Assembly (NCBI GenBank): GCA_001001485.1
Contig: LCKO01000005.1
Location: forward strand, 3,552-67,551
From: Candidatus Collierbacteria bacterium GW2011_GWB2_45_17
GTDB lineage: Bacteria > Patescibacteriota > Microgenomatia > UBA1400 > MFAQ01
DNA: 64,000 nt
Direction: 5' to 3'
The notes under the pieces were generated by a model. It was not told the DNA's origin, did no database searches, and saw only the letters and a program-made list of their open reading frames with translations. A program made the position numbers and the translations under genes. How positions within the stretch are numbered: the first letter of the stretch is position 1; the number at the start of each line of letters is the position of its first letter. Below are positions 12,772-59,700 of this stretch, one piece after another.

Positions 12772-13461
12772 TCAATCCGTATACACGATCTCCTTCTTCT
12801 TAAACCGATACAGCTCCGCCGGTCGGTGAGCTCCGCCTGAGGACTTTACCCCCACCGGTAGCAGTAAATCAATCGAAAGCATTTTTTTACGAAAGTTTCT
12901 TTTATCAAGCGATTTATTAAGGATAACTTCATAAACATTCTGCAAATCAGTCAAGGTAAAATGATCGGGTAACAAACCAAAGCTGATATTGGTGTACCCC
13001 AGCTTACTTCGAAGTCTCTCCAAGCCGTAAAGGAAAATATCTTGGTGGTCAAAGGCCAGTTTGGGAAGATCGGCAATGGGAAAAAATTCTGCCTGGTAAA
13101 CATCACCAGAAGCTCGCAAAGACCAATGTGACTTGGTTACCAGAGCCATATAGGTTACCGAAATTACTCTAGTCCTTGGGTCGCGTTTTGGACTGCCAAA
13201 GGTATAGAGCTGTTCCAGGTAGACATTTTTTACTCCGCTTTCCTCTTCCAGCTCTCTCACAGCCGCTTCGTCCAGAGACTCGTTCATCTTCACAAATCCA
13301 CCTGGAAGTGACCAAGAGTCCTTAAAGGGCTCGTCTTTTCTACGAACCAATAAGATCTTAAGGTGGTCGGAATCAATTGTAAATAACAACACATCTACGG
13401 CCAAAGACGGTCTGTCATATTTAGTCACATCATATCCTTTTACCATGTGTCCATTATACAC
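12772..13461 (-). CDS. nrtR: NrtR-like Nudix-related transcriptional regulator (Nudix + C-terminal winged helix)
   Basis: Nudix box GGFVKMNESLDEAAVRELEEESG; C-terminal 'FTLTDLQNVYEVILNKSLDKRNFRKK', which resembles the NrtR wHTH signature. Confidence 0.55.
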   Translation of the reverse strand: MYNGHMVKGYDVTKYDRPSLAVDVLLFTIDSDHLKILLVRRKDEPFKDSWSLPGGFVKMNESLDEAAVRELEEESGVKNVYLEQLYTFGSPKRDPRTRVISVTYMALVTKSHWSLRASGDVYQAEFFPIADLPKLAFDHQDIFLYGLERLRSKLGYTNISFGLLPDHFTLTDLQNVYEVILNKSLDKRNFRKKMLSIDLLLPVGVKSSGGAHRPAELYRFKKKEIVYTD

Positions 13462-13471
13462 TAAGAACTAG

Positions 13472-15049
13472 CTACTTTCCAGACGCCTCAATCTCAGTTA
13501 GCATTGCTTTTGATTGCCACAGTTTTGGGTTCAGTCGCAACGCTTCGGTAAAACCTTGTTTAGCTTTTTCCACGTCACCTAGCTTCAGATAGGAGTTTGC
13601 TCGATTGTGAACAGCGTCAGCGTAGAGTGGATTAAGTTCGATTGCTTTGGTAAATTCCTCAATTGATTTCACCAAGTTCCCCTGATTGGCATAGGCGTCT
13701 CCCAAATTATTATGATTTTGCGAGCTACTTGGAGAAATAAATTCCGCCGAAAACCAGAGGGTGTCGGCCGTTCTCCAGTCTCGAATTCGGTCCAGACTTC
13801 TCAAAGACATCGCCAAAACTACCACCCCGACAAAAACATAAAGTGTTTTATTCCATCTTTTATTTGAAAACAAACTATCAAGACAGATAGCTAAAATCAC
13901 CGCCAAACCTGCAAACATCAAATAGGCATATCTTTCAGCTACGAGCGACCCTACTCGAATGGGCAAGAGTAACAACAGTAGAGACGAAATCGAAAATACC
14001 ATCCAAAACCATACGTCTCGATTCCTTTTACTCACCATCATTAGGCACCAACCGACAATTACTGTCAGACTGCCATATTTAAGTAAGTTAGGAAGACTCA
14101 AGTCCAGTTCCGAGTGATACAATGTCAATCCAGCCGGCCACAAATATAACCAAATATAATAACCAATGGTGATCAAAAATTTAGAAATTGGATTGTCCCA
14201 TGATCCAATAGTGGTGTAGTTCTCAATTTTTAAAACCTCAATCCGTTCTCCCAGTACCGACAACATTTCCAACCCTCTCACCAAAGCCAGTCCGAACCAG
14301 GCGATAAGAAGCCACCGTTTTGTTACAAGTTTGCCTCTATACCAGTCCCACCAGAGTAACAACAGTGGTAGAAAAACGTATTTTTCGTTTGACATCAACG
14401 TCATCGTCCACAAGCCGATTTCTGTAAAATTTTTAAGTGGAGTGCGCTTGTCGTCTAGATGAAGATACAAACTCCCCATGGCCAGCATTCCCCCTAACGC
14501 ATAAGGCATACCCGAAATCCACACCACGGACTCCAGAATGGGTGGGGCTACGATAAAAAAAAGACAAGCCATCATGGCTGTTCGAAATGGGTTTGATCTT
14601 CGAACGATCAAAAAAAGCAACGTCGATGTTACCAGATGAAAAACAATATTTGCCAAACGGAAAGCCCAAGGCATCACTCCAAAGGTATTTGCTATCAGAA
14701 AGTGAACCATATTTGCCCAAAATCCGAGAATGGCGTGTGTGGCAAGGCTCCATGTTCCTAATTGGGGGTTGTTCAGAATCGCCGGAATATCATCGGAGAC
14801 AAAGGCGTTTCCCAGGCTGGTAGAAAGTACCAAAAAAGCCATCACCAAAACTACCCCTAAAATTTGTACTTCGTAACTCTGAGGAACAAACATTTCCTCT
14901 TTTATACCCAGTAAATCTCTTGCCTCACTTACCGAAATCTCTAAATGATCGGCAATTTCTACCGCACCAAGCTTATACTTGTGTTTTTTAAACCACTTTT
15001 TCTGTTTAGTACTTAGTTGAATCTCCATTTGCCTCACACCTTCAATCAT
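13472..15049 (-). CDS. GT-C fold PMT/ArnT-like membrane glycosyltransferase with C-terminal TPR repeats
   Basis: More than 10 TM helices, DD loop motif (VSDDIPAIL), three C-terminal TPRs; the N-terminal 50 aa look like a fused HTH and the true start may be the internal MFVPQ. Confidence 0.5.
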   Translation of the reverse strand: MIEGVRQMEIQLSTKQKKWFKKHKYKLGAVEIADHLEISVSEARDLLGIKEEMFVPQSYEVQILGVVLVMAFLVLSTSLGNAFVSDDIPAILNNPQLGTWSLATHAILGFWANMVHFLIANTFGVMPWAFRLANIVFHLVTSTLLFLIVRRSNPFRTAMMACLFFIVAPPILESVVWISGMPYALGGMLAMGSLYLHLDDKRTPLKNFTEIGLWTMTLMSNEKYVFLPLLLLWWDWYRGKLVTKRWLLIAWFGLALVRGLEMLSVLGERIEVLKIENYTTIGSWDNPISKFLITIGYYIWLYLWPAGLTLYHSELDLSLPNLLKYGSLTVIVGWCLMMVSKRNRDVWFWMVFSISSLLLLLLPIRVGSLVAERYAYLMFAGLAVILAICLDSLFSNKRWNKTLYVFVGVVVLAMSLRSLDRIRDWRTADTLWFSAEFISPSSSQNHNNLGDAYANQGNLVKSIEEFTKAIELNPLYADAVHNRANSYLKLGDVEKAKQGFTEALRLNPKLWQSKAMLTEIEASGK

Positions 15050-16326: not shown

Positions 16327-16846
16327 GTTACAACGAAATTCGAACTTATTTTCGGGACCATTACTAGTTATTGGCTCACCGCTCGGCAAAATTGCCTCGC
16401 GGTTCGCCAACCCCGCCTGCCGCGGGGTATACCGTCGCGCGACACCACTGCCTGCCGGCAGGTCACCTCCAACTGCGGTTGTCAGTGAGCCATACGAACT
16501 CGGTATCCCGCCCTCGTCGTCAATGTGAGTTTCGATACTTCGAACCAAAGCAATCTCACTCCACTGACTCTCGGTCGGAATGAATTTCTCTACGAGCTAG
16601 CGCCAGCTATCGCTGTCGCATCTTTATGTTCGTCCGCCTAGGCGGACGAAGCTCTCAACATATGGCTCGAATTTCAATCTCGCCATAAAATACCCACAGA
16701 TAGGAAACCTATTTTATCAGTGGGTATTAAATCCTTGAGACAGCATTGGCCTATGGGCCAAGTGCTTGCTTCGCAGGCACAGATTCAAGATAGCGACTGG
16801 TTTATAATGTGCGTAAACAATAATAACAAACCCTTTCATTCTAACT
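16327..16846 (+). repeat. 5' GC-rich structured module, copy B (full length)
   Basis: About 520 nt, GC-rich, homologous to 48716..49239 in conserved blocks, with sequence-variable hairpins between them; abuts the ATG at 16847. Confidence 0.8.
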
Positions 16847-26065: not shown

Positions 26066-26076
26066 GCTTACATACA

Positions 26077-26094
26077 AGTGTTTTATATACACTA
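26077..26094 (+). promoter_or_regulatory. Candidate NrtR operator (AGTGT-N7-ACACTA) overlapping the pncB promoter
   Basis: Inverted repeat AGTGT...ACACT and the shared 8-mer ATACACTA just upstream of the extended -10 TGGTATAAT (26097..26105). Confidence 0.3.
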
Positions 26095-26166
26095 TGTGGT
26101 ATAATACCCCCTAGTAATAGTACGCACCCTAAAAATCTGAGAACAGTCCCACAATCGGAGGCACAA

Positions 26167-27366
26167 ATGACGTTGAAAAAAACACGTTACACCACTGATG
26201 GCTACAAGTTATCGGTAGGATATATTCTTTGGTGGCTGAACATGGTAATGGGAATGAAAATTCAAGGCCGATATATGTTTGTAGATCGCAACGGAACCCA
26301 TTATCCCGATGGATTTGCAGATCGACTTAAAGATAAATTTGTCGAGAACGAAGAGTTACCTGCTCGTCCAGAAATTGCGTCATATCTTGCCGAAAAATAT
26401 CCCTTTTTACCAGATGAATACATTAAATGGTACGACAGAGTCTTCTATTTCGATAGCAGTCAAATAGACCTCAGTCAAAAGGGTGGAGACCTTCGAATTT
26501 TTTACGAAGGTCCAATTCACACCGTCAAACATCACGAAATTATTTCACTATTTGATATTTCGAACTTGACTACTAAGGTGTTTGGTTACAAGCCGGAATC
26601 AAATTGGCAAGATCGAATTCATCACGACGCCAAAGCTCTCAAAGAAAAAGGCGTGACCCACTCTCACGGCGGAGGCCGAAGAGCCTTGTCTCGAGATCAC
26701 CACGATGAAGTTCTTGGTATCCTTCAAAAGTATAAAAAGGGAGTGGGGGATAAAGGTGGATTTTTTGGCGAGTCTTTCATTGACATGGCCTGGGCACACG
26801 GTCTCCCCATCATGGGTACCATGGGGCACGAATACCCCATGACTTGCGCAGGTGTCTGGGGTGTAGAAAATGCGAATAAAAAAGCTAGAGAAATTTGGCT
26901 CAATATGTATGGCAAGAACTTGGGCTATTGGTTAGACGATACCTGGGGGACAGAATGGTCAGATATGGACATGACCAAAGACGAAGCTCGGAAATTCAAA
27001 GGATCTCGTCATGACTCATGGCCGTTTGAATGGTATGTTGACCAAAAGTTAGGTATGTATAAGCGATTGGGTATTGATAGCCGTGAAAAGGAAATAATTA
27101 CCAGCGAAGGTATGAAAACCTTGAAAGACATAATTCATACAGTCGAGTACCGAGCCGGTGAATTTAAATCAGCTGCGTTACTTGGCAAGTATTGGTCAAA
27201 TCCTTTCGCATACAACATTGTCAACAAGTTGGTCGCTGTAAAAGTTGGTGACGGACCATGGAAAGACGTTTGTAAGATCTCCAACGATATGTCCAAAGCC
27301 ATTGGTAAACCAGAAGTCATTAAGGAAGTTCTGGAGATAAGAGCCAAGGCAATGGCAAATAAATAA
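26167..27366 (+). CDS. pncB: Nicotinate phosphoribosyltransferase family
   Basis: N-terminal 'TTDGYKLSVGY' resembles E. coli PncB 'DTDAYKLHM'; 'MGTMGHEYPM' resembles 'MGTQAHEW'. Confidence 0.55.
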   Translation: MTLKKTRYTTDGYKLSVGYILWWLNMVMGMKIQGRYMFVDRNGTHYPDGFADRLKDKFVENEELPARPEIASYLAEKYPFLPDEYIKWYDRVFYFDSSQIDLSQKGGDLRIFYEGPIHTVKHHEIISLFDISNLTTKVFGYKPESNWQDRIHHDAKALKEKGVTHSHGGGRRALSRDHHDEVLGILQKYKKGVGDKGGFFGESFIDMAWAHGLPIMGTMGHEYPMTCAGVWGVENANKKAREIWLNMYGKNLGYWLDDTWGTEWSDMDMTKDEARKFKGSRHDSWPFEWYVDQKLGMYKRLGIDSREKEIITSEGMKTLKDIIHTVEYRAGEFKSAALLGKYWSNPFAYNIVNKLVAVKVGDGPWKDVCKISNDMSKAIGKPEVIKEVLEIRAKAMANK

Positions 27367-27378
27367 ATACTAAACACA

Positions 27379-27400
27379 CCCTCTTAATCGAGGGTGTTTT
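27379..27400 (+). terminator. Rho-independent terminator after pncB
   Basis: CCCTCttaatcGAGGG followed by TGTTTT. Confidence 0.55.
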
Positions 27401-27418
27401 ATTATTGCTATACTGAAT
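27401..27418 (+). promoter_or_regulatory. Promoter -10 (TGCTATACT) within an 18-nt motif identical to 39036..39053; transcript is likely leaderless
   Basis: attattgctatactgaat is identical at both loci; the ATG begins 7 nt after the -10. Confidence 0.45.
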
Positions 27419-27420
27419 TA

Positions 27421-28827
27421 ATGCAGTTAAATCCGTATATTTTTCGTGGCTATGACATACGTGGTTTGGTCGGGAAAGATCTAAACAAGGAAATTTATTA
27501 CCTACTTGGTAGGGGATACGCTACTTTTCTGGTCGAAAGGAAAATAAAATTATGCCCGGTCGGTCGGGACAATCGAGCCACCAGCAAGTCTTATTCCAAA
27601 TACTTCATTAAGGGTCTAAACGATGGCGGCATCGATACGATAGACCTCGGGCTTTCTCTCAGTCAAATCGTCTACTTCTCCTCATACCACTACCTCACCA
27701 AGGCCTGTGCTATCATCACCGCTTCTCACAACACCAAAGAGTTTAATGGTCTAAAACTGGGTAAGAGCTACTCTGAAACTCTGGCTTTGAATGAAATCCA
27801 GGAAATAAAACAAATTATTGACGCGAAAAGATTTTCGGTAGGCCATGGTATAAACTCCAAGAAAAATGTTTTTCCCGGTTATCTGAAACACATAGAAGGT
27901 TACTTCAAACTTGGACGAAAATGGAAGATCGTCATTGACACTCTCAATAATACGTCTGGGAAATTTTATCCAAAACTTTTTCGTCGAGCTGGCTGTCGAG
28001 TCACTCACCAAAATCCTTGGTTATTCAGCTCCTTCCCCAACGGCACCGACCCTACCGATATCCACGTTTTGAATAACTTGTCTAAAAGAGTAGTTCAGGA
28101 AAAAGCCGACTTGGGTTTTGCTTTTGATGCCGATGGCGATCGGATGTCTGTCGTCGACGGTACCGGCAAAATTCATTGGATGGACACGATCACCGCCATT
28201 TTTGCCGTCGATGTCCTTGAAAACATTCCCGGCGCTACCATCATCTTCAACAATCTCTGTTCTCGAGCAGTTCCGGATACCATTCAAAAACTTGGTGGAC
28301 ATCCGTTGATGTGGAAAACCGGACACTCATATATCAAAGCCAAAATCAGACAAACCGGTGCCTTGCTTGGAGGAGAACTTTCCGGACACGTTTTCTTTAT
28401 GGACAATTTTTTTGGTCACGACGACGCCGCTTACGCCTGCTTAAGACTACTATCATTTTTAGAAAAACACCACGAAACCTTAGCCGACGCCTGTTCGTCG
28501 ATTGAAACCCATATTAGTAGTCCTGAAATAAAACTGGGAGTACCGGACAATCTCAAGTTTGACCTGGTGGAGAATCGGATTAGGCACGACTTGGTCGCTA
28601 CCTGGCCAGAAGCCAAGGCTATTGATATTGACGGCATTAGGCTTGATACAGAGAAAGTCATGGTGGTGGTTCGAGCCTCTCAAAACGGTCCTTATATCAC
28701 CGTTAGATTTGAAGGAACCGATCAAAAGCTTTACAATGAAACCAAAGATAAATTAAATAATTTACTCAGGCAACACCTCGAAATTGATTGGACAGACACC
28801 ATCAACGGTTACGCCCTAACATCATGA
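27421..28827 (+). CDS. Phosphoglucomutase/phosphomannomutase (alpha-D-phosphohexomutase)
   Basis: Active-site 'TASHNTKEFNGLK', Mg loop 'FDADGDR', sugar-binding 'GGELSGH'. Confidence 0.85.
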   Translation: MQLNPYIFRGYDIRGLVGKDLNKEIYYLLGRGYATFLVERKIKLCPVGRDNRATSKSYSKYFIKGLNDGGIDTIDLGLSLSQIVYFSSYHYLTKACAIITASHNTKEFNGLKLGKSYSETLALNEIQEIKQIIDAKRFSVGHGINSKKNVFPGYLKHIEGYFKLGRKWKIVIDTLNNTSGKFYPKLFRRAGCRVTHQNPWLFSSFPNGTDPTDIHVLNNLSKRVVQEKADLGFAFDADGDRMSVVDGTGKIHWMDTITAIFAVDVLENIPGATIIFNNLCSRAVPDTIQKLGGHPLMWKTGHSYIKAKIRQTGALLGGELSGHVFFMDNFFGHDDAAYACLRLLSFLEKHHETLADACSSIETHISSPEIKLGVPDNLKFDLVENRIRHDLVATWPEAKAIDIDGIRLDTEKVMVVVRASQNGPYITVRFEGTDQKLYNETKDKLNNLLRQHLEIDWTDTINGYALTS

Positions 28828-29882
28828 ACATTCTGGACAATTCAAAAAACTACCGGCAAATCGACGATAGTGATCTCTACGGATCCTTAACCAAAGTTGG
28901 TCGTCAATTTGAGTCCGGCTGGACGGTAGCTCAGTTTGTCAGTCTAAACTTTGAAACGAGCAAAATCAAAAATATTGTTTTTGTTGGCATGGGTGCCAGC
29001 AATCTTTCTGCTTACATCGCCCACTCTCTCGCCCCATTTCTTCTCAATGTCCCCTTTGAAATCGTCAGTAACTATAGACTTCCTGCCTACTCCGACAAAA
29101 GCACCTTAGTCATTCTTTCCAGTTATTCAGGCAATATCGAAGAAGTTCTGTCCTGCGCCTCGGACGCCAAAATGAGGAGCTGTTACATAGTCGTCATCAC
29201 CTCCGGAGGTAAGATGGCTAGTTTAGCCGAGACCGAACACTACCCCCTGATACGATTGGATGAAAAATTTAATCCTTCGCACTGTCCCAGAGCCGGTCTG
29301 GGCCTATCTTTAGGAGGAGTTATTGGTTTATTACTCCGGCTAAATCCACCATCTCAAAAACACTTTGACGTCAAAGAAATTATTCGTACCATCGAACGTG
29401 TTCTAGACATGGTGAGCATCTACAAAGACATCGCCGAAAATCCGGCCAAGACCCTCGCCGCCAAACACAAAGGACAGGGTATTATTATTTTTAGTGCCAA
29501 CCATCTCGAAGGAGTCGGTCGGTCAACAGCCAACTTTCTTAACGAATCGGCTAAAACGATGGCGGAAAACTTCAGCTTTCCGGACTTAAATCATCATCTC
29601 TTGGAAGGATTTTTATACCCTCAGGGGTTGAAAGATCAATCCAGCATCATCATCCTCAACTCTTCTCTCTATCCGGAAGTCCTTCAAAAGAAAATAGTCT
29701 TAACTAAGGATATTCTTCTTCAACAAAAGTATCGGGTCACTGTCATCAAGCCGGAAACTTCGGATCCGGTTCTCCAAGTTTTTGAGTCACTGGTCTTTTT
29801 GATTTCTTTTAGTTATTATTTAAGTATCGTTAACAAAGTAAACCCAGCCACCAATCTCTGGGTAGACTACTTTAAAACATGA
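28824..29882 (+). CDS. Bifunctional phosphoglucose/phosphomannose isomerase (SIS domain)
   Basis: SIS fold pattern (VFVGMGASN..., ILSSYSGN); ATGA overlap with pgm. Confidence 0.7.
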   Translation: MNILDNSKNYRQIDDSDLYGSLTKVGRQFESGWTVAQFVSLNFETSKIKNIVFVGMGASNLSAYIAHSLAPFLLNVPFEIVSNYRLPAYSDKSTLVILSSYSGNIEEVLSCASDAKMRSCYIVVITSGGKMASLAETEHYPLIRLDEKFNPSHCPRAGLGLSLGGVIGLLLRLNPPSQKHFDVKEIIRTIERVLDMVSIYKDIAENPAKTLAAKHKGQGIIIFSANHLEGVGRSTANFLNESAKTMAENFSFPDLNHHLLEGFLYPQGLKDQSSIIILNSSLYPEVLQKKIVLTKDILLQQKYRVTVIKPETSDPVLQVFESLVFLISFSYYLSIVNKVNPATNLWVDYFKT

Positions 29883-32155
29883 ACACCACGCCTGCCCTGG
29901 TACTTCCATTTTCCAAAATTAGCAAAGAAGACATCTCCTTAGTTGGAGGCAAGGGTGCCAACCTGGGAGAAATGTACTGTCTTGGCCTACCTGTACCCAA
30001 TGGTTTTGTGGTCACCGCTCAAGCATATCAGTCTGTCATCGACCACAACGCTCTTCAGCCGGTAATCCGAGAAATTATTAGACAAACAGACGTCAACCAT
30101 CAAAAAGAGTTACAAAAAGCCTCGATCAAAATTCAACGCCTCATCAACACGGCCGATATCCCTCAAAATCTCATTGACGAAATCTTCGAAAGCTATCAAG
30201 ATCTGAAACCGGGTGACCAGAGACCCTTGGTCGCGGTTCGTTCATCGGCCACCGCCGAAGACCTTCCCGACGCCTCCTTTGCCGGCCAACAAGAGTCATA
30301 TCTCGACATCCAGGGAGAATCAAATCTGATTCAGGCCATCCGACAGGCTTGGGCCTCACTTTGGGGAGCCAGAGCCATCTTTTATCGCGCCACCAAGGGT
30401 TTTGATCACTTTAAAGTTTTGCTGGCGGCTCCCGTTCAGCTTATGATCCAGTCCGAGGTTTCCGGTGTCGTTTTCTCAGTCAATCCGGTCAGTCGAAACA
30501 AAAATCAAGTAGTCGTGGAAACTGTCTGGGGACTAGGTGATTACATCGTTCAAGGAGTCGTCAACCCCGATCATTACATCGTCAACAAAGATAGCTTAAC
30601 CATTCATTCCAGACAATCGGTTCCGCAAACAATCATGGAGGTCAGACAAATTCCCAATGGGGTCAAAAAAATCAATGTGCCTAAAGAAAAAGTTTTTGCC
30701 AGAAAACTTACCGATGAGCAAGTGATCGAAGTGGCTAAGTTGTCGCTCAAAGTTCATCAGCATTATTTTTTCCCTCAAGATAGCGAATTCGCCGTCGAAA
30801 ATAACAAAATATTTCTGGTTCAAACCAGACCCATTACTACTCTTAACTTAGAAAAGAGCCAGCAAAAAATTTCGGAAGGCCAACTAATCAAATTAAAACA
30901 AATACTTCAAGGTCAGCCGGCCTCCTTCGGCATCGGAGTGGGTAAAGTGGTCAAGATAAAAAAGGCCAGCGAAATAAACCGTGTCAAAGAAGGCGACGTC
31001 CTGGTCACCGAGATGACCTCACCGGACTTCGTCCCGGCTATGAAGCGGGCTTCAGCCATCGTCACCGATAAGGGAGGTCAGACCTCTCACGCCGCCATTG
31101 TCTCTCGTGAACTAGGCATTCCGGCCGTGGTGGGAACCAAGATCTCCACCAGGATTCTCAAAGACCATCAGCTGATCTCTGTCAATGGCTCAACCGGCAC
31201 CATTTATAACGGCGTTCCGGAAAAAGTCAAAGTAGTCGAAACCAAAGAATTCAAAGAAGAAGAATTTCCCAAAACCGCTACCAAAGTTTACGTTAATCTC
31301 GGAGAGCCGGATCTGGCCTCCTTGGTGGCTCAAGGAAACGCTGATGGCGTCGGACTTCTTCGGGCTGAATTTATGATGGCTCAGATCGGGGTCCACCCAA
31401 AAAAAATGATTCGAGACGGCAAATCTCAAGTGTTCATTCACAACCTGGCCGAAAACTTAGCTAAGTTTACCGATAGTTTTGGAGATCGGCCAGTCGTTTA
31501 CCGAGCTTCGGATTTTAAAACCAACGAGTATCGCAATCTAATCGGTGGTCAAGATTATGAGCCAATTGAACCCAATCCCATGCTCGGCTTTAGGGGTGCT
31601 TACCGGTATCTGAGTGATGAGTCTGTTTTTAATCTCGAGTTGGAAGCTATTAAAACTGTCCGGAACAAAATGGGTTACAAAAATCTGCACCTCATGGTGC
31701 CATTTTGCCGGACAGTCGAAGAGCTTGTCAAAGTTAAAAGAATTATTTCTGCCAGCGGACTGACCAGATCAAACTCTTTTAAGCTTTGGATGATGGTCGA
31801 GATTCCTTCAAATGTAATTCTACTTGAAGACTTCATTCAAGTTGGCATCGATGGCATTTCCATCGGCAGTAACGATCTCACCATGCTGATTTTGGGAACG
31901 GATCGCGACAACGAAACTGTCGCTTCCGAATTCGACGAAAGAAATCCCGCCGTTACCTGGGCCTTGGAGCGGGTTGTAAAAACTGCCGCCAAACATCACA
32001 TAACCAGCTCTCTCTGCGGTCAGGCCGCTAGCCTATATCCGGATTTAGTAGAACAATTGGTCGGTTGGGGTATTACATCGGTTTCGGTTAGCCCGGACGC
32101 TGTCGACAATACTCGCCGTGTCATCTCCCAAATAGAGAAACGTCTACTAAAATGA
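29879..32155 (+). CDS. ppsA: Phosphoenolpyruvate synthase / pyruvate, water dikinase
   Basis: PEP-utilising His domain 'GGQTSHAAIVSRELGIPAVVG', N-terminal ATP-grasp region, C-terminal TIM barrel. Confidence 0.85.
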   Translation: MNTTPALVLPFSKISKEDISLVGGKGANLGEMYCLGLPVPNGFVVTAQAYQSVIDHNALQPVIREIIRQTDVNHQKELQKASIKIQRLINTADIPQNLIDEIFESYQDLKPGDQRPLVAVRSSATAEDLPDASFAGQQESYLDIQGESNLIQAIRQAWASLWGARAIFYRATKGFDHFKVLLAAPVQLMIQSEVSGVVFSVNPVSRNKNQVVVETVWGLGDYIVQGVVNPDHYIVNKDSLTIHSRQSVPQTIMEVRQIPNGVKKINVPKEKVFARKLTDEQVIEVAKLSLKVHQHYFFPQDSEFAVENNKIFLVQTRPITTLNLEKSQQKISEGQLIKLKQILQGQPASFGIGVGKVVKIKKASEINRVKEGDVLVTEMTSPDFVPAMKRASAIVTDKGGQTSHAAIVSRELGIPAVVGTKISTRILKDHQLISVNGSTGTIYNGVPEKVKVVETKEFKEEEFPKTATKVYVNLGEPDLASLVAQGNADGVGLLRAEFMMAQIGVHPKKMIRDGKSQVFIHNLAENLAKFTDSFGDRPVVYRASDFKTNEYRNLIGGQDYEPIEPNPMLGFRGAYRYLSDESVFNLELEAIKTVRNKMGYKNLHLMVPFCRTVEELVKVKRIISASGLTRSNSFKLWMMVEIPSNVILLEDFIQVGIDGISIGSNDLTMLILGTDRDNETVASEFDERNPAVTWALERVVKTAAKHHITSSLCGQAASLYPDLVEQLVGWGITSVSVSPDAVDNTRRVISQIEKRLLK

Positions 32156-33426
32156 GTAAAATAAAATCAGTCTACGCTCGAGAAATTCTCGACTCGCGCG
32201 GCAATCCCACCATCGAGACCACCGTCTGGTCAGACAACGCCCATGGTGCCGTCGCTTCCATACCTAGCGGCGCCTCAACCGGACGTTTAGAAGCCTACGA
32301 AATGAGAGATAGTGATCCCAACCGGTTTGGTGGTCTAGGTGTTCTAAAAGCTTGTGCCAATGTTAATCAAATCATCAGTAAATACATTGTTGGCCAAGAT
32401 CCTCTAAAACAAAACGATATCGATCAAATCCTCTTAAATACCGATGGTTCAGCCAACAAATCAAAACTAGGGGCCAACGCCATTCTATCGGTTTCCCAAG
32501 CCTGTTTTGAGCTGGGAGCCGCCTGCGCTGAAATACCTACTTTCGAGTACGCAGCTCAAAAATATGGTTTTCCACCTGCTTCACCTACTCATCTACCTTC
32601 CCCAATTTTTAATCTCATTAATGGCGGCAAGCACGGAGCCGGTAATCTTGATTTTCAAGAGTTTCATGTTATTCCGTCCAGCCGAAAGACTTTCTCTGCC
32701 TCACTGGAGATGGGTAGCGAACTATATCATTTACTCAAGAAAGTTCTCATCGAAAAAAAGGCTACTTCCTCTGTTGGAGATGAGGGTGGCTACGCTCCCA
32801 ATTTAGTTTCCAACACCGATGCCATCGAACTTTTGGTCGAAACTATCGAAGCCAGTCCATACAAATTAAACGAAGACCTTTATCTGGGACTGGATATCGC
32901 CGCTTCCACTTTTTTTCAGGGTGGAAAATATAAAATAAGCGATGTCAAAGACCCCATGACCGGTATTCAAATGGGGGATTTTTTAATCGATTTAAACCGA
33001 AAATACAGTCTCTTGTCCATTGAAGACCCCTTTGATCAGGAAGCTTGGACTGACTGGGAAAATCTCTTCGCTAATATAGGCAAACAACTGATGATCGTTG
33101 GTGACGATCTTTTAGTCACTAACAAAGCCAGACTCGAAGAAGCCATCAAACGAAGTGCCTGCAACGCGGTCCTCATCAAACCAAATCAAATTGGCACTAT
33201 TTCGGAGACTGTTGCCGTGATCAAATTAGCTAAAAAAAATAATTTCTCCGTTATCATTTCACACCGCTCAGGCGATACCGATGAAGACTTTTTGGCAGAC
33301 TTTGCCGTCGGAGTTGGAGCTGACTTTGTCAAGTTCGGCGCTCCCGGTAGGGGAGAGCGAGTCGCCAAATACAACCGCCTACTCTTTATTCAAGAATACC
33401 TAGAAAGCCTCCACCCCACCTCATGA
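32152..33426 (+). CDS. eno: Enolase
   Basis: N-terminus 'SKIKSVYAREILDSRGNPTIET' and the enolase signature region. Confidence 0.95.
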   Translation: MSKIKSVYAREILDSRGNPTIETTVWSDNAHGAVASIPSGASTGRLEAYEMRDSDPNRFGGLGVLKACANVNQIISKYIVGQDPLKQNDIDQILLNTDGSANKSKLGANAILSVSQACFELGAACAEIPTFEYAAQKYGFPPASPTHLPSPIFNLINGGKHGAGNLDFQEFHVIPSSRKTFSASLEMGSELYHLLKKVLIEKKATSSVGDEGGYAPNLVSNTDAIELLVETIEASPYKLNEDLYLGLDIAASTFFQGGKYKISDVKDPMTGIQMGDFLIDLNRKYSLLSIEDPFDQEAWTDWENLFANIGKQLMIVGDDLLVTNKARLEEAIKRSACNAVLIKPNQIGTISETVAVIKLAKKNNFSVIISHRSGDTDEDFLADFAVGVGADFVKFGAPGRGERVAKYNRLLFIQEYLESLHPTS

Positions 33427-34925
33427 AAAAGGTTATCCTCTGTATTCTCGATGGCTGGGGAATCGCGCCTGACTCACCAGGCAACGCTATCACCAGAGCC
33501 AAGCCACAGACTTTCAATTATTTACTCCAAAATTTTCCCCAAACCCAACTATTAGCCGCCGGTCCGGCTGTTGGCCTACCGGAAGGTCAAGATGGCAATA
33601 GTGAAACCGGTCACCTAAACATCGGCGCCGGCAGAATCGTCTACCAAGATCTCTCGCTTATAAACATGGCCATCGCCGACGGCAGTTTTTTTACCAATCG
33701 AGCTCTCCTTGATACCGTTAAACATCTCTCTTCTTTTGATTCTCGCCTTCATCTTTTAGGCCTCATCGGCTCATCCGGAGTTCATGCTTTCAATGAACAT
33801 CTCTACGCCCTCATGTTATCTGCCAAAAACCATAATCTTCAACACGTCTACTTGCATCTCATCACCGACGGTCGCGATAGTGATCCTCATAATGCCCTGG
33901 AACAAATCAAGGCTGTCCAAAAAAAGGTTGTCGAGCTGGGAACTGGTCAAATTGCTTCACTCATGGGTCGTTACTTTGCTATGGATCGTGACAATCATAT
34001 TGAAAGAACCCAAAAGGCGTTTGATTGTTTAATCGGATCCGATAATGTTCCCCAGAAAGAGGCTGGCTCATATTTAGAAAAACTATATTCTCAAGGAGTT
34101 ACTGATGAGTTTATTTCTCCCGCCTCTATTGGCGACGACTCAGAGACGACTCGAATCAAAGCTGGTGATGCCGTCGTATTTTTCAACTTCAGAACTGACC
34201 GTCCAAAACAGTTGACCGAAATGTTTCTTAACTCGGGTCTTCCCAATCTACGATTCGTCACCATGACCAACTATCGAGAATCTTTTTCCAATCCGGTTAT
34301 GTTTCCCCTAACTACTATCACTAACACTCTTGGAGAAATCGTTTCCAACTCAAAACAGCTTCAACTTAGAGCGGCCGAAACCGAAAAAATTGCCATGGTT
34401 ACTTACTACTTCAATGGCCAAAGCGAGGATGCCTTTCTCGGAGAGGCGCGTTTATTTATCAATTCACCCAATATTTCCACCAGCGATCTTCAGCCACGTA
34501 TGTCTACCGACAGGTTAATCGGCGAGTTTACCAAACACTTTAAAGAAACCGATTTTTCTCTTGGTATTCTCAATATTGCTTGTCCGGACATGGTGGCGCA
34601 TACCGGTAAAATCGACAAGACCATCGAAGCAGTTCAAGCGGCCGACGAAGCTCTGGGGAATCTCATAAATCTCGCCAAAGAAACTGATTCCTATCTTCTC
34701 ATCACCGCTGATCACGGTAATGCGGAAGAACTTCTAAATTCAGCCGGCGAAGTGGACACCAAACACTCGCTTCATCCGGTACCGTTCATAATTTACCATC
34801 TCAATGATTATCATTTTCAGCTACAATCCGGCAAACTTGGCGATGTCGCCCCCACCATTCTCAACCTCCTGGATCTCCCCCAACCCGCCGAAATGAACGG
34901 CAAAAACCTAATCCTCCGCTCATAG
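33423..34925 (+). CDS. gpmI: 2,3-bisphosphoglycerate-independent phosphoglycerate mutase
   Basis: N-terminus 'ILCILDGWGIAPDS' and 'ITADHGNAE' metal site. Confidence 0.9.
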   Translation: MKKVILCILDGWGIAPDSPGNAITRAKPQTFNYLLQNFPQTQLLAAGPAVGLPEGQDGNSETGHLNIGAGRIVYQDLSLINMAIADGSFFTNRALLDTVKHLSSFDSRLHLLGLIGSSGVHAFNEHLYALMLSAKNHNLQHVYLHLITDGRDSDPHNALEQIKAVQKKVVELGTGQIASLMGRYFAMDRDNHIERTQKAFDCLIGSDNVPQKEAGSYLEKLYSQGVTDEFISPASIGDDSETTRIKAGDAVVFFNFRTDRPKQLTEMFLNSGLPNLRFVTMTNYRESFSNPVMFPLTTITNTLGEIVSNSKQLQLRAAETEKIAMVTYYFNGQSEDAFLGEARLFINSPNISTSDLQPRMSTDRLIGEFTKHFKETDFSLGILNIACPDMVAHTGKIDKTIEAVQAADEALGNLINLAKETDSYLLITADHGNAEELLNSAGEVDTKHSLHPVPFIIYHLNDYHFQLQSGKLGDVAPTILNLLDLPQPAEMNGKNLILRS

Positions 34926-34975
34926 CGTCATTGCGAGGTCGCCTAGGCGACCGCAGTAATATCTCTTCCTGAAAG
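34926..34975. repeat. Small dispersed repeat unit (CGTCATTGCGAG + hairpin GTCGCCtaGGCGAC)
   Basis: 12-mer CGTCATTGCGAG is shared with five other loci; the hairpin is analogous to GTCCGCCtaGGCGGAC in modules B and C. Confidence 0.7.
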
Positions 34976-48715: not shown

Positions 48716-49239
48716 GTTATAACGAAATTCGAACTTATTTTCGGGACCATTACTAACTTATTGGCTCACCGCTCAACACTTCGTGTCTCGCGGTTCGCCA
48801 CCGCCTGCCCTGCCGGTCCGCCTTTGGCGGAGGCGGAACCACTTGCGCGCGAGAAGCGGTATCCCGCCCTCATCGTCATTGCGAGGTTCGGTACCCCAAA
48901 CCGTGGCAATCTCACTCCATTCGGATTCGGTCGGGATGATTGCTCTTACGAGCAAGCGCCAGCATTCGCTGTCGCATCTATATGTTCGTCCGCCTGAGGC
49001 GGACGAAGCTGTTCTCAACATATGGCTCAGAACATCGTCATTGCGAGGAATGAAATGACGAAGCAATCTATATAGATTGCATTTCCTCGCCATAAAATAT
49101 CAGATAGTTAGGAGTGTATTTTACTATCTGATATTTAGTGATTGAGACAGCATTGGCCTAGCGACCAATGTGCCTGCTTTGCAGGCACAAGAAATATATT
49201 TTGAACTTGTATAATTACAATTATGTTGAAAAAAATAAT
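48716..49239 (+). repeat. 5' GC-rich structured module, copy C (full length)
   Basis: Homologous to 16327..16846 (first 55 nt nearly identical; blocks ctcgcggttcgcca, cggtatcccgccctc, gcaatctcactcca, cgctgtcgcatct, GTCCGCCtgaGGCGGAC, ctcaacatatggctc, cgccataaaata, ttgagacagcattggcc, GTGCCTGCtttGCAGGCAC); the internal hairpins change sequence while keeping their pairing. Confidence 0.8.
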
Positions 49240-53616: not shown

Positions 53617-55443
53617 ATGCTAAACATCAGAAACATTGCCGTCATTGCTCACGTCGATCATGGCAAAACCACTCTCATCGACGCTTTCATCAAACAGTCA
53701 CATATTTTCCGTGACAATCAAGACGAAATGAGTCAAACCACCCTTCTCGACAGCAATGTACTGGAAAGAGAGCGGGGAATCACTATTTTGGCCAAGAATA
53801 TCTCAGTTAATTACAAAGGCACCAAGATCAATATCATCGATACTCCTGGCCACTCCGACTTCTCTGGCGAGGTCGAAAGAACTCTGGGTATGGCCGATGG
53901 AGCTCTCCTTATCGTCGACGCCCAAGAAGGTCCCATGCCTCAGACTCGTTTTGTGCTCAAAAAAGCCTTCGAACTTGATCTCAAAGTCATTGTGGTCATC
54001 AACAAGATTGACAAGCCAAATGCCGATATTTCCAAAACCGAAAGCAGAATTTCCAACCTTTTCCTTGAACTAGCCACCGAAGATCATCATATCGACTATC
54101 CCATTCTTTACGCTGTGAGTAAATCAGGTAAAGTTTTTGATACTTTACCGGAAAATTTTGAAGCACCGGGAAATGTCATTCCTTTACTGGATAAAATTTT
54201 GGAATTTATTCCCAATCCCACTAACGACCAAAAAGGTAGCTTTAAAATGCTCATTTCTTCTTTAAATCATGACTCTCACCTGGGTCGCATTATCGTCGGT
54301 AAAATTTTTCGCGGATCCATAAAACCAGGCCAAAAGGTACTTCTTCTTGGAGAAACTCCCAAGTCACACCAAATTAACAAAGTTTTTACCTCCGAAGGAC
54401 TGGGCCGCTTAGCCGTTGAAGAGGCCTACGCCGGTGACATCGTTTCTCTTACCGGAATCACCAACTGTAAAATAGGTCAAACCATATCAACCTTAGGAGA
54501 TACCGAACCTTTAGCCTCAGCCATCATCACCGAACCCACTCTTCACATCACCGTCGGACCAAACACCTCACCCTTATCCGGCAGGGAAGGGGAGTTTACC
54601 ACCGCTCGTCAAATAGAAGAGCGCTTAGCCAAAGAGCTAGAGATCAATCTATCTCTAAAACTTGAAAAATTGGAGAGTGGCAAATATAAAGTCTCAGGAA
54701 AGGGTGAACTTCACCTGGCGGTACTGTTGGAAACTTTGCGTCGTGAGGGATATGAGGTTGAGGTGGGTAAGCCCGAAGTAATTTACAAAATCATTGATGG
54801 TCAAAAGTGTGAACCCTACGAAGATGTCAATATCGTGGCTCCTCAGGAATATTTAGGCACTATTACTCAAGAAGTCGGCAAACGACTGGGAGTCCTGTCT
54901 CACATGGACCCTGTCAGTGATAAGGAAGTCGAGTTTGTGTATAAAATGCCTACTCGAGCCATCCTTGGACTCCGCTCTCTTCTACTGACCGCCACCAAAG
55001 GCACCGTCATCTTTAACAGTCAATTTTTGGACTTTGAGCCGGTAGGGGAGAATCTGCCCAAAATGCGCCGAGGTGTTCTGATAGCCACCAACTCCGGCGA
55101 AGCCCTCTCGTATGGCCTTCAAGCCGCTCAGGAGCGTGGTAGCACCTTCGTGGAGCCGGCCGACGCTATTTATGAAGGTCAAATCGTCGGTGCCAACGCC
55201 AAAGCTGAAGATATCGAGATCAACGCCTGCAAAGGCAAGCAACTTACCAACATGCGCTCTAAGTCCTCAGACGGCGTTATCCAGCTCGTTCCCGCCATCA
55301 AATTCTCCTTAGAACAGTGTCTGGACTTCTTGGAAAGCGACGAGCTTTTGGAAATCACTCCCAAGAACCTGCGACTACGCAAAAAATACCTCACTCAAGT
55401 TGAACGTCGTCGTCACCGTGACGAAATCAAAAACACCTACTAA
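53617..55443 (+). CDS. typA: Translational GTPase TypA/BipA
   Basis: G1 AHVDHGKTTL, G3 DTPGHSDF, G4 NKID, EF-G-like domains, 608 aa. Confidence 0.9.
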   Translation: MLNIRNIAVIAHVDHGKTTLIDAFIKQSHIFRDNQDEMSQTTLLDSNVLERERGITILAKNISVNYKGTKINIIDTPGHSDFSGEVERTLGMADGALLIVDAQEGPMPQTRFVLKKAFELDLKVIVVINKIDKPNADISKTESRISNLFLELATEDHHIDYPILYAVSKSGKVFDTLPENFEAPGNVIPLLDKILEFIPNPTNDQKGSFKMLISSLNHDSHLGRIIVGKIFRGSIKPGQKVLLLGETPKSHQINKVFTSEGLGRLAVEEAYAGDIVSLTGITNCKIGQTISTLGDTEPLASAIITEPTLHITVGPNTSPLSGREGEFTTARQIEERLAKELEINLSLKLEKLESGKYKVSGKGELHLAVLLETLRREGYEVEVGKPEVIYKIIDGQKCEPYEDVNIVAPQEYLGTITQEVGKRLGVLSHMDPVSDKEVEFVYKMPTRAILGLRSLLLTATKGTVIFNSQFLDFEPVGENLPKMRRGVLIATNSGEALSYGLQAAQERGSTFVEPADAIYEGQIVGANAKAEDIEINACKGKQLTNMRSKSSDGVIQLVPAIKFSLEQCLDFLESDELLEITPKNLRLRKKYLTQVERRRHRDEIKNTY

Positions 55444-55462
55444 CATTTTCCACTCAGGGGTG

Positions 55463-55479
55463 ATACACTACTAGTGTAT
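55463..55479 (+). promoter_or_regulatory. Candidate NrtR operator: perfect palindrome ATACACTA-C-TAGTGTAT upstream of nadE
   Basis: 17-bp perfect inverted repeat 34 nt upstream of the nadE start; shares ATACACTA with the pncB upstream region. Confidence 0.35.
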
Positions 55480-55512
55480 TAGCGACACTTTGTACTTTTA
55501 CAGGAGGTCACT

Positions 55513-56463
55513 TTGAAAATCTTAAACTATAGGCAGGCTCGCAAAATCGAGGATATGGCCGTTACCGATTTGGCCAAATATATCAAGACAGCCGGACTCA
55601 AAACTATTGTTTTGGGAATTTCCGGCGGACTCGACTCAGCCGTCATGGCCATACTTGGTCTCAAAACCATCAACAAACTTCAGAAAGAGGGTTATCAATG
55701 CGCCCACATCTACGATTTTATCGGAGTAGAAAGCCACTCGGACGATCTAAAGAAAGCTCGAGTCCTGTCTCACGAATTTGGCTTTGATCTTAGCGAATAC
55801 GATTATACCGAGTGGTATCGTCAATCTCCCATTCGTCTTAATTCACACGCCGACCAATGGAAAATTCGCGTAGCCAACGGTAATCTCAAATGTCGTCTTC
55901 GTATGCTCCATTTATATGATCGTTCTCAGCTTTTTGGCGGCATCGTTCTCGACACAGATGATTTCTCGGAACTTCTCATGGGTTTCTGGACTCGTCATGG
56001 AGATGAGGGAGATGTAAAAATAATCCAACATCTTACCAAAGACGAAGTTCGAGATTTGGGAGAGTATTTAGGTATTTCCAAACTGATTCTTGAAGCGGCT
56101 CCAGGCGATGGTTTGGGAATCACCGATACCAACATGGCCAAAGATCAGCTCAAAATGGACTACATGAAAACAGATTACATCGTCAGTCATCTTTATCAAA
56201 GCGGTCTGAACTATAACAGTGACATCTCCTTACTCCAAACCCAAAGGTGTCTCAGAATTATCAAAGAAATTGCCGAAGAAATTTCAGAGTCGGTCGAAAA
56301 TGTCACCCATGTAGTCAAACAAGCTCTCAAGACGGCCTTCAAAAGAAAGTACGGTGATAATGTGGCCATCTTATTATCCTCCCGTACCAAATTGGGTCTA
56401 CCGGAACTCGGAACTCCAATATTTAACAAACTATATCTGGAGGCCATCAAAAAATCTCAATAA
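55513..56463 (+). CDS. nadE: NH3-dependent NAD+ synthetase
   Basis: PP-loop 'GISGGLDSAV'; TTG start preceded by the RBS GGAGGT. Confidence 0.8.
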   Translation: MKILNYRQARKIEDMAVTDLAKYIKTAGLKTIVLGISGGLDSAVMAILGLKTINKLQKEGYQCAHIYDFIGVESHSDDLKKARVLSHEFGFDLSEYDYTEWYRQSPIRLNSHADQWKIRVANGNLKCRLRMLHLYDRSQLFGGIVLDTDDFSELLMGFWTRHGDEGDVKIIQHLTKDEVRDLGEYLGISKLILEAAPGDGLGITDTNMAKDQLKMDYMKTDYIVSHLYQSGLNYNSDISLLQTQRCLRIIKEIAEEISESVENVTHVVKQALKTAFKRKYGDNVAILLSSRTKLGLPELGTPIFNKLYLEAIKKSQ

Positions 56464-58599: not shown

Positions 58600-59700
58600 C
58601 CAAAACGGTCACGTTTCGTCTAAAAAAAGATTGGTATATCAATACCTGGTTTTTTAGAGATCTGAAGGGGTATTTTACCGTTCAGAGGTTTGAATTTACC
58701 CTCACAATCAGTCAGTTTCTTAGTTCTTCTTCGCAGGAAGTAGCCATTAAGCCAAGTATCGGCGTGAGACATTGACTCAAAACCCTTAATGGTTTTGAGT
58801 CTTCCTTGTAAGTGAGAGTTAAAACACTCGATGAGATTGGTGGTGATTGGTAATCCTTTAAAGTTTCTCCAACCAAGGAGTAAGTCAGAGGACTTCGCTA
58901 AGTCAGTTAAGATAGCCAGACAGATTGGGTCATATTTCCACTTGTCAAACAAATACCTCGCCCTCTGGTTGTGATCTTCCAACGATCTCTTGCGGGAGAG
59001 TAGGTCTTCAATCAGGTGGACGAACTCAAGATGGAGAAAATCAGTCTTTAGATCAAAACAGTTTCTGACGTTTTGTTTGTAGTGGTTCTGGCAGAGCTGA
59101 ACCACCGCTCTCGGAAAGATATTCAGACAGGCGTCTCTGATGACTTGATTGTCGTCGCAGACCATGGCCTGGAGTGGGTAGTTAGCCAGCTTAAGCGAAG
59201 AGAAGAACTTAAGGAGAGTCAAATACCCCTCGTTGACTCCAAGTCTGTAAGAGGGAATATCGTGGCTCTGGTAGTCAACACCGTAGACGACCGGTAGTTT
59301 CCGGTCGTAGCCTTTGACCTTGACATATTTTCCGTCAACCAAAAGAATACCGGTATATTTAGAAGCGAAGTTACGAGTAATATCGGCACAATGAGGAAGC
59401 TTAGAAAGAACCTCGTTTACTCTCCGGAAGACAGTCCCCACTCCCAGGCCAGATTGATCAGCCAGAGAGCGAAAGGGTACTCCATCGAGATGAAGTAGCG
59501 CTAACTTGCCGTCGTCAACCGACGATCTACTTCTGTTGATTTGAAACCAATGGCTACACGATGAACAAGAATATTTAACCTTACCTCGACGCGAGCCTCT
59601 TTTCTGAGTGATTAACCAGCCGCAAGACGGACACTTGGGGTTTTTTCATACCTTAATCATACATTTGACTAGTCAAAACAGATGTTTTGTTGGATGCAGA
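58600..59700 (-). mobile_element. IS1595-family insertion sequence (boundaries approximate)
   Basis: Single transposase with an N-terminal zinc ribbon and a DDE domain; located between tRNA-His and a hypothetical gene; no clear terminal inverted repeats identified. Confidence 0.55.
58620..59649 (-). CDS. IS1595-family DDE transposase, frameshifted near the start (A6C4 run)
   Basis: N-terminal 'KCPSCG...KYSCSSCSHWFQ' zinc ribbon; 'LLVDGKYV', 'VCDDNQ', 'TNLIECFNSHLQGRLK' DDE/N-x3-E-x2-N-x2-LK motifs; the ATG MKKPQ is in a different frame, separated by the aaaaaacccc homopolymer. Confidence 0.65.

Follow-up and report, generated by a model that had tools for sequence, protein, structure and literature searches.

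Between typA/bipA and nadE, in the 64,000-nucleotide stretch of DNA that we analysed (the window), there is a perfect 17-bp palindrome (ATACACTACTAGTGTAT) that begins 20 nt past the typA/bipA stop (55443) and leaves 33 nt between its end and the nadE start codon, TTG. An earlier note had read this palindrome, together with a related site at the pncB promoter, as an operator of a compact, lineage-specific NAD regulon under an NrtR-like regulator encoded in the same window. The locus raises the question of whether the palindrome is indeed what such a regulator would bind. The palindrome is present as described, but we find that the operator lies in a different register, and we consider it highly probable that the window encodes a conventional NrtR repressor with three operators, lying over the promoters of pncB, nadE and nrtR, in a small groundwater bacterium, a Collierbacteria-like member of the CPR. 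The features on which this reading depends are collected in Table 1.

Table 1. Genes, predicted operators and promoter elements of the candidate NrtR regulon, in order along the window.
Feature	Position (strand)	Sequence	Description	Basis or score
nrtR	12772..13446 (-)		224 aa, ATG at 13446; Nudix N-terminal and NrtR winged-helix C-terminal domains	
Predicted nrtR operator	13444..13464 (-)	TTAGTGTA-TAATG-GACACATG	One core mismatch	Matrix score 17.6, third in window
Predicted nrtR promoter	13453..13481 (-)	TGGAAA-17-TATAAT		Promoter scan, 10/12 matches
Predicted pncB NrtR operator	26075..26095	CAAGTGTT-TTATA-TACACTAT	Exact core	Matrix score 21.0, best in window
Predicted pncB extended -10	26097..26105 (+)	TGGTATAAT	TGgTATAAT	TATAAT aligned in 6 relatives
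pncB	26167..27366 (+)		Divergent nicotinate phosphoribosyltransferase	
Probable extended -10 of nadE	55461..55469 (+)	TGATACACT	TGaTACACT	Alignment; function inferred
Perfect palindrome	55463..55479	ATACACTAcTAGTGTAT	Arms ATACACTA-C-TAGTGTAT, 17 bp	
Predicted nadE NrtR operator	55471..55491	CTAGTGTA-TTAGC-GACACTTT	Exact core	Matrix score 19.0, second in window
nadE	55513..56463 (+)		316-aa NAD synthase without glutaminase domain, TTG start	

The regulator had been described as a Nudix domain fused to a C-terminal winged helix-turn-helix resembling that of NrtR, and this description holds. The start of the open reading frame 12772-13461(-) is placed at the ATG at 13446 by the public gene calls and by all homologues, and an identical 224-aa product is called in NCBI GCA_001001635.1 (LCKV01000002.1) and in a groundwater scaffold in ENA. 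Pfam NUDIX matches residues 22-140 (8e-22), Pfam NrtR_WHD (PF21906) matches at 1.5e-26 over positions 2-61 of the 61-position model, and the NCBIfam model 'ADPR responsive transcriptional repressor' matches at 4e-52, under its equivalog cutoff (177 vs 400 bits). Full-length homology extends to two solved structures, PDB 5bs6 (AraR; 2.6e-41) and 3gz5 (Shewanella NrtR; 3.9e-37, residues 4-217), and both alignments run through the DNA-binding domain. Because it is homologous to these NrtR and AraR structures, the C-terminal domain is, on homology, a winged helix; its DKRNFRKK helix, the recognition helix, is invariant across 80 homologues. By its sequence, then, the window protein is a genuine NrtR-family regulator.

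The Nudix box GX5EX7REUXEEXGU is intact in the translation (GFVKMNE-SLDEAAV-RELEEESGV) and conserved in the homologues, in contrast to most NrtR family members, in which this signature is degenerate (PMC2330246). Because the signature is intact and conserved in this subfamily, the window NrtR may hydrolyse its effector ADP-ribose besides, or instead of, sensing it; ADP-ribose hydrolysis has been reported for the cyanobacterial protein NuhA (PMC2330246).

What a regulator of this kind binds can be asked of its homologues. A protein scan of species-representative genomes with the window NrtR gave 80 loci, at 49-67% identity and covering 1.145 Mb, from Chloroflexota, Acidobacteriota, Myxococcota, Planctomycetota, Omnitrophota, Gammaproteobacteria and cyanobacteria, with further loci on MAGs labelled Woesearchaeota or other archaea. 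The pattern AGTGT-N7-ACACT occurs 45 times in the 1.145 Mb, against about 1.1 expected (length over 4^10); at the other spacings from N0 to N15 the count is 0-2 throughout, so that the enrichment is at N7 only. The consensus of 93 sites with at most one mismatch is TTAGTGTA-(A/T-rich N5)-TACACTAA. A site lies within 260 bp upstream of nrtR in 31 of 77 loci, where 0.0115 would be expected per zone, and tandem sites 22-27 bp apart are often seen. Sites are also found 4-60 bp upstream of NAPRTase genes (L014 and L039, recognised by Pfam; L045, L054, L060, L064, L066, L067 and L075, recognised from N-terminal sequence only), of nadA (L003, L034) and of other NAD-linked genes. The regulon is not, as had been proposed, specific to one lineage, since the motif is common to NrtR homologues of 49-67% identity across many phyla.

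In the window the operator takes the same form, a 21-bp palindrome TTAGTGTA-N5-TACACTAA with the core AGTGT-N7-ACACT, and each of its three copies sits at the promoter of one of the window's NAD-related genes, which are three in all: pncB, nadE and nrtR. The cores at 26077-93 and 55473-89 are exact and that at 13446-62 has one mismatch; set side by side, the three regions read cAAGTGTtttatatACACTAt (pncB), cTAGTGTattagcgACACTTt (nadE) and tTAGTGTataatggACACAtg (nrtR, minus strand). The exact core occurs twice in the window against 0.01 expected, and none of 100 shuffles reaches two. On a weight matrix built from the sites in the NrtR-homologue loci, the three copies take the first three ranks and the next best score in the window is 7.4; 1000 shuffles gave on average 0.033 matches scoring 17.6 or more, and no single shuffle gave as many as two. 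The core pattern itself came initially from the three window sites, so the matrix ranking of the window is partly circular, while the matrix flanks and the enrichment in other loci are independent of the window. Most published NrtR motifs have 21-bp palindromic symmetry and a GT-N7-AC core (PMC2330246), and the window operators share both (~21-bp palindrome, GT-N7-AC core). What survives of the proposed regulon is the NrtR regulator with operators at pncB and nadE; the 17-bp palindrome that had been highlighted is not one of these operators, and the site at nrtR had been missed.

A further one-mismatch core at 34751-34767 lies inside the gpmI coding region, has a matrix score of 6.2, and was treated as chance. 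A Pfam scan of 40 more ORFs of the window for further NAD genes (nadD, pncA, niaP, pnuC and similar) found none, and the MFS transporter at 815-2098 has no operator and no NiaP-specific match.

At pncB, the gene product matches Pfam NAPRTase (1.9e-14) and, over its full length, the NCBIfam nicotinate phosphoribosyltransferase models (1e-51, under their cutoffs), and its homologues carry the NAPRTase name in Candidatus Collierbacteria. The upstream region reads AGTGT (26077-81)-TTTATAT-ACACTA (26089-94)-tg-TGGTATAAT, with 2 nt between the site and the -10, so that AGTGT-N7-ACACTA abutting the extended -10 had been read correctly. The operator fills the -35/spacer region directly upstream of the -10, and transcription is predicted to start at about 26112. 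Among relatives of the gene, the operator followed by TATAAT is kept with an exact core in L100, L103, L104 and L105, four relatives of 46-74% identity, and with one mismatch in L106; one relative, L102, has no operator. These contigs (L100-L106), and the nadE contig L081 considered below, are short, and conservation in them is known from the sites, not from an nrtR gene.

Two other observations concern the sequence around pncB. In the 5' UTR, between the -10 and the Shine-Dalgarno sequence, there is a conserved motif at 26122-26136 (ACGCACCCTAAAAAT), with counterparts in L100, L102, L103, L105 and L106 (GCACACTAATAAAT, GTACACTAATAA, CGTACACTGAAATT, ACGTACCCTAAAAAT and GCACACTAAATTT). It resembles the NrtR right half-site TACACTAA, has no left half at N7 and a low matrix score, and is found even in L102, which is without the main pncB operator. 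Downstream, pncB is followed by tightly spaced central-carbon genes on the same strand (26167-34925 (+)), encoding PGM/PMM, a PGI-like SIS protein, a PPDK/PpsA-type PEP-utilising enzyme, enolase and iPGM. A likely internal promoter at 27406 argues against co-transcription of pncB with these genes: in the PGM/PMM gene, TGCTATACT (27406-14) lies 6 nt before an internal ATG at 27421, giving an apparent leaderless gene, and this suggests that the GTG start at 27394 is wrong.

At nrtR the operator is merged with the promoter, having the -10 TATAAT within its spacer and the nrtR ATG as its last 3 nt. The -10 ends 6 nt before the ATG, and because of this we predict a leaderless nrtR transcript starting at 13446. 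The closest homologue, L001, has the same overlap of operator, -10 and start codon (AGTGTATAATTGACACATG). L001 (CAZGSP010000061.1) is labelled 'uncultured Pseudomonadales' and is syntenic with the CPR window (NrtR 67% identity, adjacent ribosomal protein L19 86%); its bin is probably mislabelled or contaminated. A two-hexamer promoter scan found the nrtR promoter only and no promoter at nadE or pncB, and the -10 assignments for those two genes were made from extended -10 matches and alignment only.

At nadE, the product matches Pfam NAD_synthase (1.2e-35) and NCBIfam nadE (2.4e-35), and the TTG start is backed by alignment with the ATG starts of homologues and by an AGGAGG Shine-Dalgarno sequence at 55502-55507. 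The operator sits directly 3' of the -10, starting 2 nt after it, and spans the predicted transcription start near 55476. It has only the right arm in common with the palindrome, and its centre is 10 bp downstream. When the registers around the palindrome were scored on the family matrix, only 55470-55492 was positive; the register of the palindrome itself scores -33, against +19 for the register centred 10 bp downstream. The syntenic typA-nadE locus L081 (TypA 84%, NadE 64% identity) keeps the operator (AAAGTGTActatcaACACTTTG) at -38 from nadE, compared with -40 in the window, and in other relatives it is found exactly at -52 (L082) and with one mismatch at -58 (L093); the more distant nadE relatives L083-L091 have no operator. 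Absence of the sites from related genomes had been named in the earlier note as evidence against the regulon, and relatives do carry N7-register operators upstream of both nadE and pncB.

If the operator takes only the right arm of the palindrome, the left arm requires another explanation. Upstream of nadE, the window sequence GTGATACACTAC aligns with GTGTTATACTAC (L081), GTGATATACTAC (L092), GTGTTACAATAA (L082) and TTATTACAATAA (L093). The aligned element, to which the left arm aligns in 5 of 5 relatives, reads as an extended -10 of the form TGnTAYAMT, in which the window sequence falls together with TGTTATACT (L081), TGATATACT (L092) and TGTTACAAT (L082), while L093 has TACAAT but no TG; extended -10 boxes also precede other genes of the window and a tRNA cluster. 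This -10 takes in 7 of the 8 bases of the left arm (ATACACT, 55463-55469), and the left arm is most simply read as the nadE extended -10, TGaTACACT. The palindrome would then be composite, the -10-like TACACT(A) joined to the operator left half TAGTGTA(T), and owe its symmetry to the chance resemblance of the -10 hexamer TACACT to an operator right half-site and to its place beside a true left half-site. Because relatives show the C residues of TACACT among their variants, and all five aligned sequences have A next after the hexamer, the perfect symmetry of the -10 with the half-site TAGTGTA is only a modest coincidence, which we estimate at roughly 1 in 10. In the pncB relatives L104 and L105, the upstream region reads TTGACA-N18-TACACT, so that there the right half-site of the operator could itself serve as a -10; this TACACT matches the TGaTACACT reading at the window nadE.

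The left arm ATACACTA could instead, or in addition, be an orphan NrtR half-site in a composite operator of three half-sites, for example the remnant of a tandem arrangement, serving a second dimer or a stronger occlusion of the -10. It matches the half-site exactly over 8 nt, tandem operators 22-27 bp apart are common in the homologue loci, and TACACT is apparently usable both as a half-site and as a -10-like hexamer, as in L104 and L105. However, the partner half-site that should lie 7 nt upstream of the left arm is absent (55453-57 reads CTCAG, 0/5 of AGTGT), the composite spacing would be 20 bp and so outside the observed 22-27 bp, and the relatives carry TATACT or TACAAT at this place, which are better -10 boxes and worse half-sites. 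We regard this arrangement as unlikely.

That the whole palindrome ATACACTA-C-TAGTGTAT (55463-55479) is the nadE operator, as the earlier note supposed, seems to us very unlikely, despite its perfect symmetry, its position upstream of nadE and the presence of its 8-mer ATACACTA in the pncB and nrtR sites (the 8-mer occurs four times in the window: in both arms, in the pncB site and in a copy overlapping the nrtR start). The half-sites of the palindrome are everted and wrongly spaced for the family: ACACT-N3-AGTGT occurs once in the 1.145 Mb, which is background, against the 45 occurrences of AGTGT-N7-ACACT, and tandem sites account for the small counts of ACACT-Nk-AGTGT at k = 4-5 and 8-10. 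Both other sites, at pncB and nrtR, have N7 spacing, and one protein with one geometry fits all three genes only in the N7 register; on the family matrix, as noted, the palindrome's own register scores strongly negative. In L081 the palindrome is lost (the left arm is TTATACTA) though the N7 operator is kept. Nor is such a palindrome, taken by itself, beyond chance: perfect 8-N1-8 palindromes number 4 in the window against 1.1 expected in shuffles.

An RNA hairpin, whether it ended or stabilised typA transcripts at their 3' end or formed a structure in the nadE 5' UTR, is extremely unlikely as an account of the palindrome. The predicted hairpin has a stem of 9 bp and a loop of 3 nt, and the fold of 55441-55512 has z = -2.08, but 7 of 200 shuffles fold as well, the stem is AU-rich with no U-run after it, a terminator scan of 55350-55560 finds none, and the hairpin is absent in L081; if transcription starts near 55476, the nadE mRNA would hold only half of the palindrome. 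Hardly credible is the reading of the regulator as an AraR- or NadQ-type relative that controls non-NAD functions, with the sites at NAD genes coincidental, since against its best PDB match (the Bacteroides arabinose regulator AraR) and its matches to Pfam AraR_C (6.7e-14) and the NadQ C-terminal domain (1.3e-15) stand the higher score of NrtR_WHD (92.7 bits vs 52.3 for AraR_C), the limitation of the NadQ match (PDB 7q91) to residues 112-217 where the NrtR and AraR structures match full-length, the position of all window sites and homologue-locus sites at NAD genes or nrtR, and the finding of no ara/xyl (pentose-utilisation) genes in the window.

We return to the NrtR repressor with three N7 operators. 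Because each operator overlaps core promoter elements, binding should repress all three genes: bound NrtR, presumably a dimer given the two-fold operator symmetry, would obstruct RNA polymerase at the pncB, nadE and nrtR promoters. The Synechocystis, Shewanella and Mycobacterium proteins suggest by analogy that ADP-ribose, which NAD consumption yields, would bind the Nudix domain and release the repressor; PncB (niacin salvage), NadE (the final step of NAD synthesis) and NrtR itself would then increase. We infer binding, repression and effector, as we do the transcription starts and the -10 assignments.

In protein, operator class, targets and autoregulation, this system matches published NrtR regulons, a kind of system familiar from textbooks since 2008. 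The genes of those regulons include nrtR, pncB and nadE, and ADP-ribose abolishes DNA binding by NrtR in vitro (PMC2330246). The regulons of Chloroflexi, Pirellula and Cyanobacteria (PMC2330246) have the same domain architecture, the same operator class and the same targets pncB, nadE and nrtR as the window; those listed include nrtR-pncA, pncB and nadCAB in Roseiflexus, and pncB-nrtR-pncA and nadE in Blastopirellula (Rodionov et al. 2008, PMC2330246). Among our loci, those labelled Roseiflexaceae (L032), Pirellulaceae (L075) and cyanobacterium (L052) have the identical AGTGT-N7-ACACT core at the gene positions given in that study. The window differs from these regulons in that the host is a CPR bacterium, the three genes are scattered over 42 kb instead of being clustered, and nrtR is apparently leaderless with the operator ending on its ATG.

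Other characterised members of the family stand at various distances. Shewanella oneidensis NrtR (PDB 3GZ5, 3GZ6, 3GZ8), a structurally and biochemically characterised ADP-ribose-responsive repressor of prs-nadV, is homologous to the window NrtR in both domains, and its system likewise has tandem palindromic operators and ADP-ribose as anti-repressor; its targets are prs-nadV, compared with pncB, nadE and nrtR in the window. Mycobacterium smegmatis NrtR represses its own gene and NAD biosynthesis genes and is released by ADP-ribose (PMC6800001), resembling the window NrtR in auto-repression, which here is predicted, but its 23-bp palindrome is GTTTTCGA-N7-TCGAAAAC, and it regulates de novo nadABC and not salvage (PMC6800001). 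Bacteroides thetaiotaomicron AraR (PDB 5BS6) belongs to the NrtR family, has the same two-domain fold and is the best-scoring solved structure, but it controls pentose-utilisation genes and responds to arabinose, and the window is without such genes or sites. Our literature search found no paper tying NrtR to CPR bacteria and none giving this motif as text together with NrtR. What is new here is the CPR host, with the leaderless and promoter geometry as a small added detail.

Several of the homologue loci deserve mention in their own right. On contigs of MAGs that carry the labels Woesearchaeota, Nanobdellati, Methanosarcinales or 'uncultured archaeon', NrtR homologues are found at 51-57% identity (L003, L006, L010, L011, L015, L033-L035, L039, L041 and L044), and the same operator stands before nadA, NAPRTase and other genes. 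One of them, L034, has an NAD island comprising a nadE-Nudix fusion, a cytidylyltransferase, a nucleoside hydrolase, nadA, an FAD oxidoreductase, NAD kinase and nrtR. In L010 (2030-3439) and L034 (7596-9062) an operator immediately precedes the gene of an FAD oxidoreductase that is of DAO/Mqo type and not recognisable as NadB, and in L034 this gene adjoins nadA; the enzyme may be a non-orthologous substitute for aspartate oxidase or dehydrogenase. Exact NrtR-type sites are also found upstream of SPFH/Band_7 genes in two unrelated MAGs (L029:5796-6698, and L071 with the site at 535), an unexpected non-NAD candidate member of the regulon.

The window has other features of interest. Three near-identical, G+C-rich perfect palindromes, TTCGTCCGCCTAGGCGGACGAA (16629-16650), TTCGTCCGCCTGAGGCGGACGAA (48985-49007) and GGTCGCCTAGGCGACC (34937-34952), the last between convergent genes, probably represent terminator hairpins or else a small repeat. 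Between 35815 and 45350, lexA is divergent from uvrB, with uvrA and uvrC near, forming a compact SOS/excision-repair cluster. There are also a fragment of a Mutator-family transposase at 58623-59441(-) and 15 tRNA genes.

For annotation, the nadE locus teaches that a -10 box beside a half-site can yield a striking perfect palindrome, and that the register of an operator call should be set by the family geometry, GT-N7-AC. More broadly, NrtR with TTAGTGTA-N5-TACACTAA could be a horizontally mobile NAD-sensing module, its half-site TACACT mimicking the bacterial -10 hexamer, since the pair recurs almost unchanged, with protein identity of 49-67% and an invariant recognition helix, in CPR bacteria, MAGs labelled DPANN or other archaea, and a dozen bacterial phyla; we offer this as a tentative idea that we think somewhat doubtful. 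Should the archaeal labels prove correct, archaeal nadA, pncB and NAD-island genes would be under a repressor of bacterial type. For the CPR, a group with very few characterised regulators, the window provides a testable three-operator regulon, and, if true, this CPR genome would count NrtR among its few dedicated metabolic regulators. The implication would be that CPR bacteria, with their reduced genomes, still adjust both niacin salvage and the final step of NAD synthesis to the turnover of NAD.
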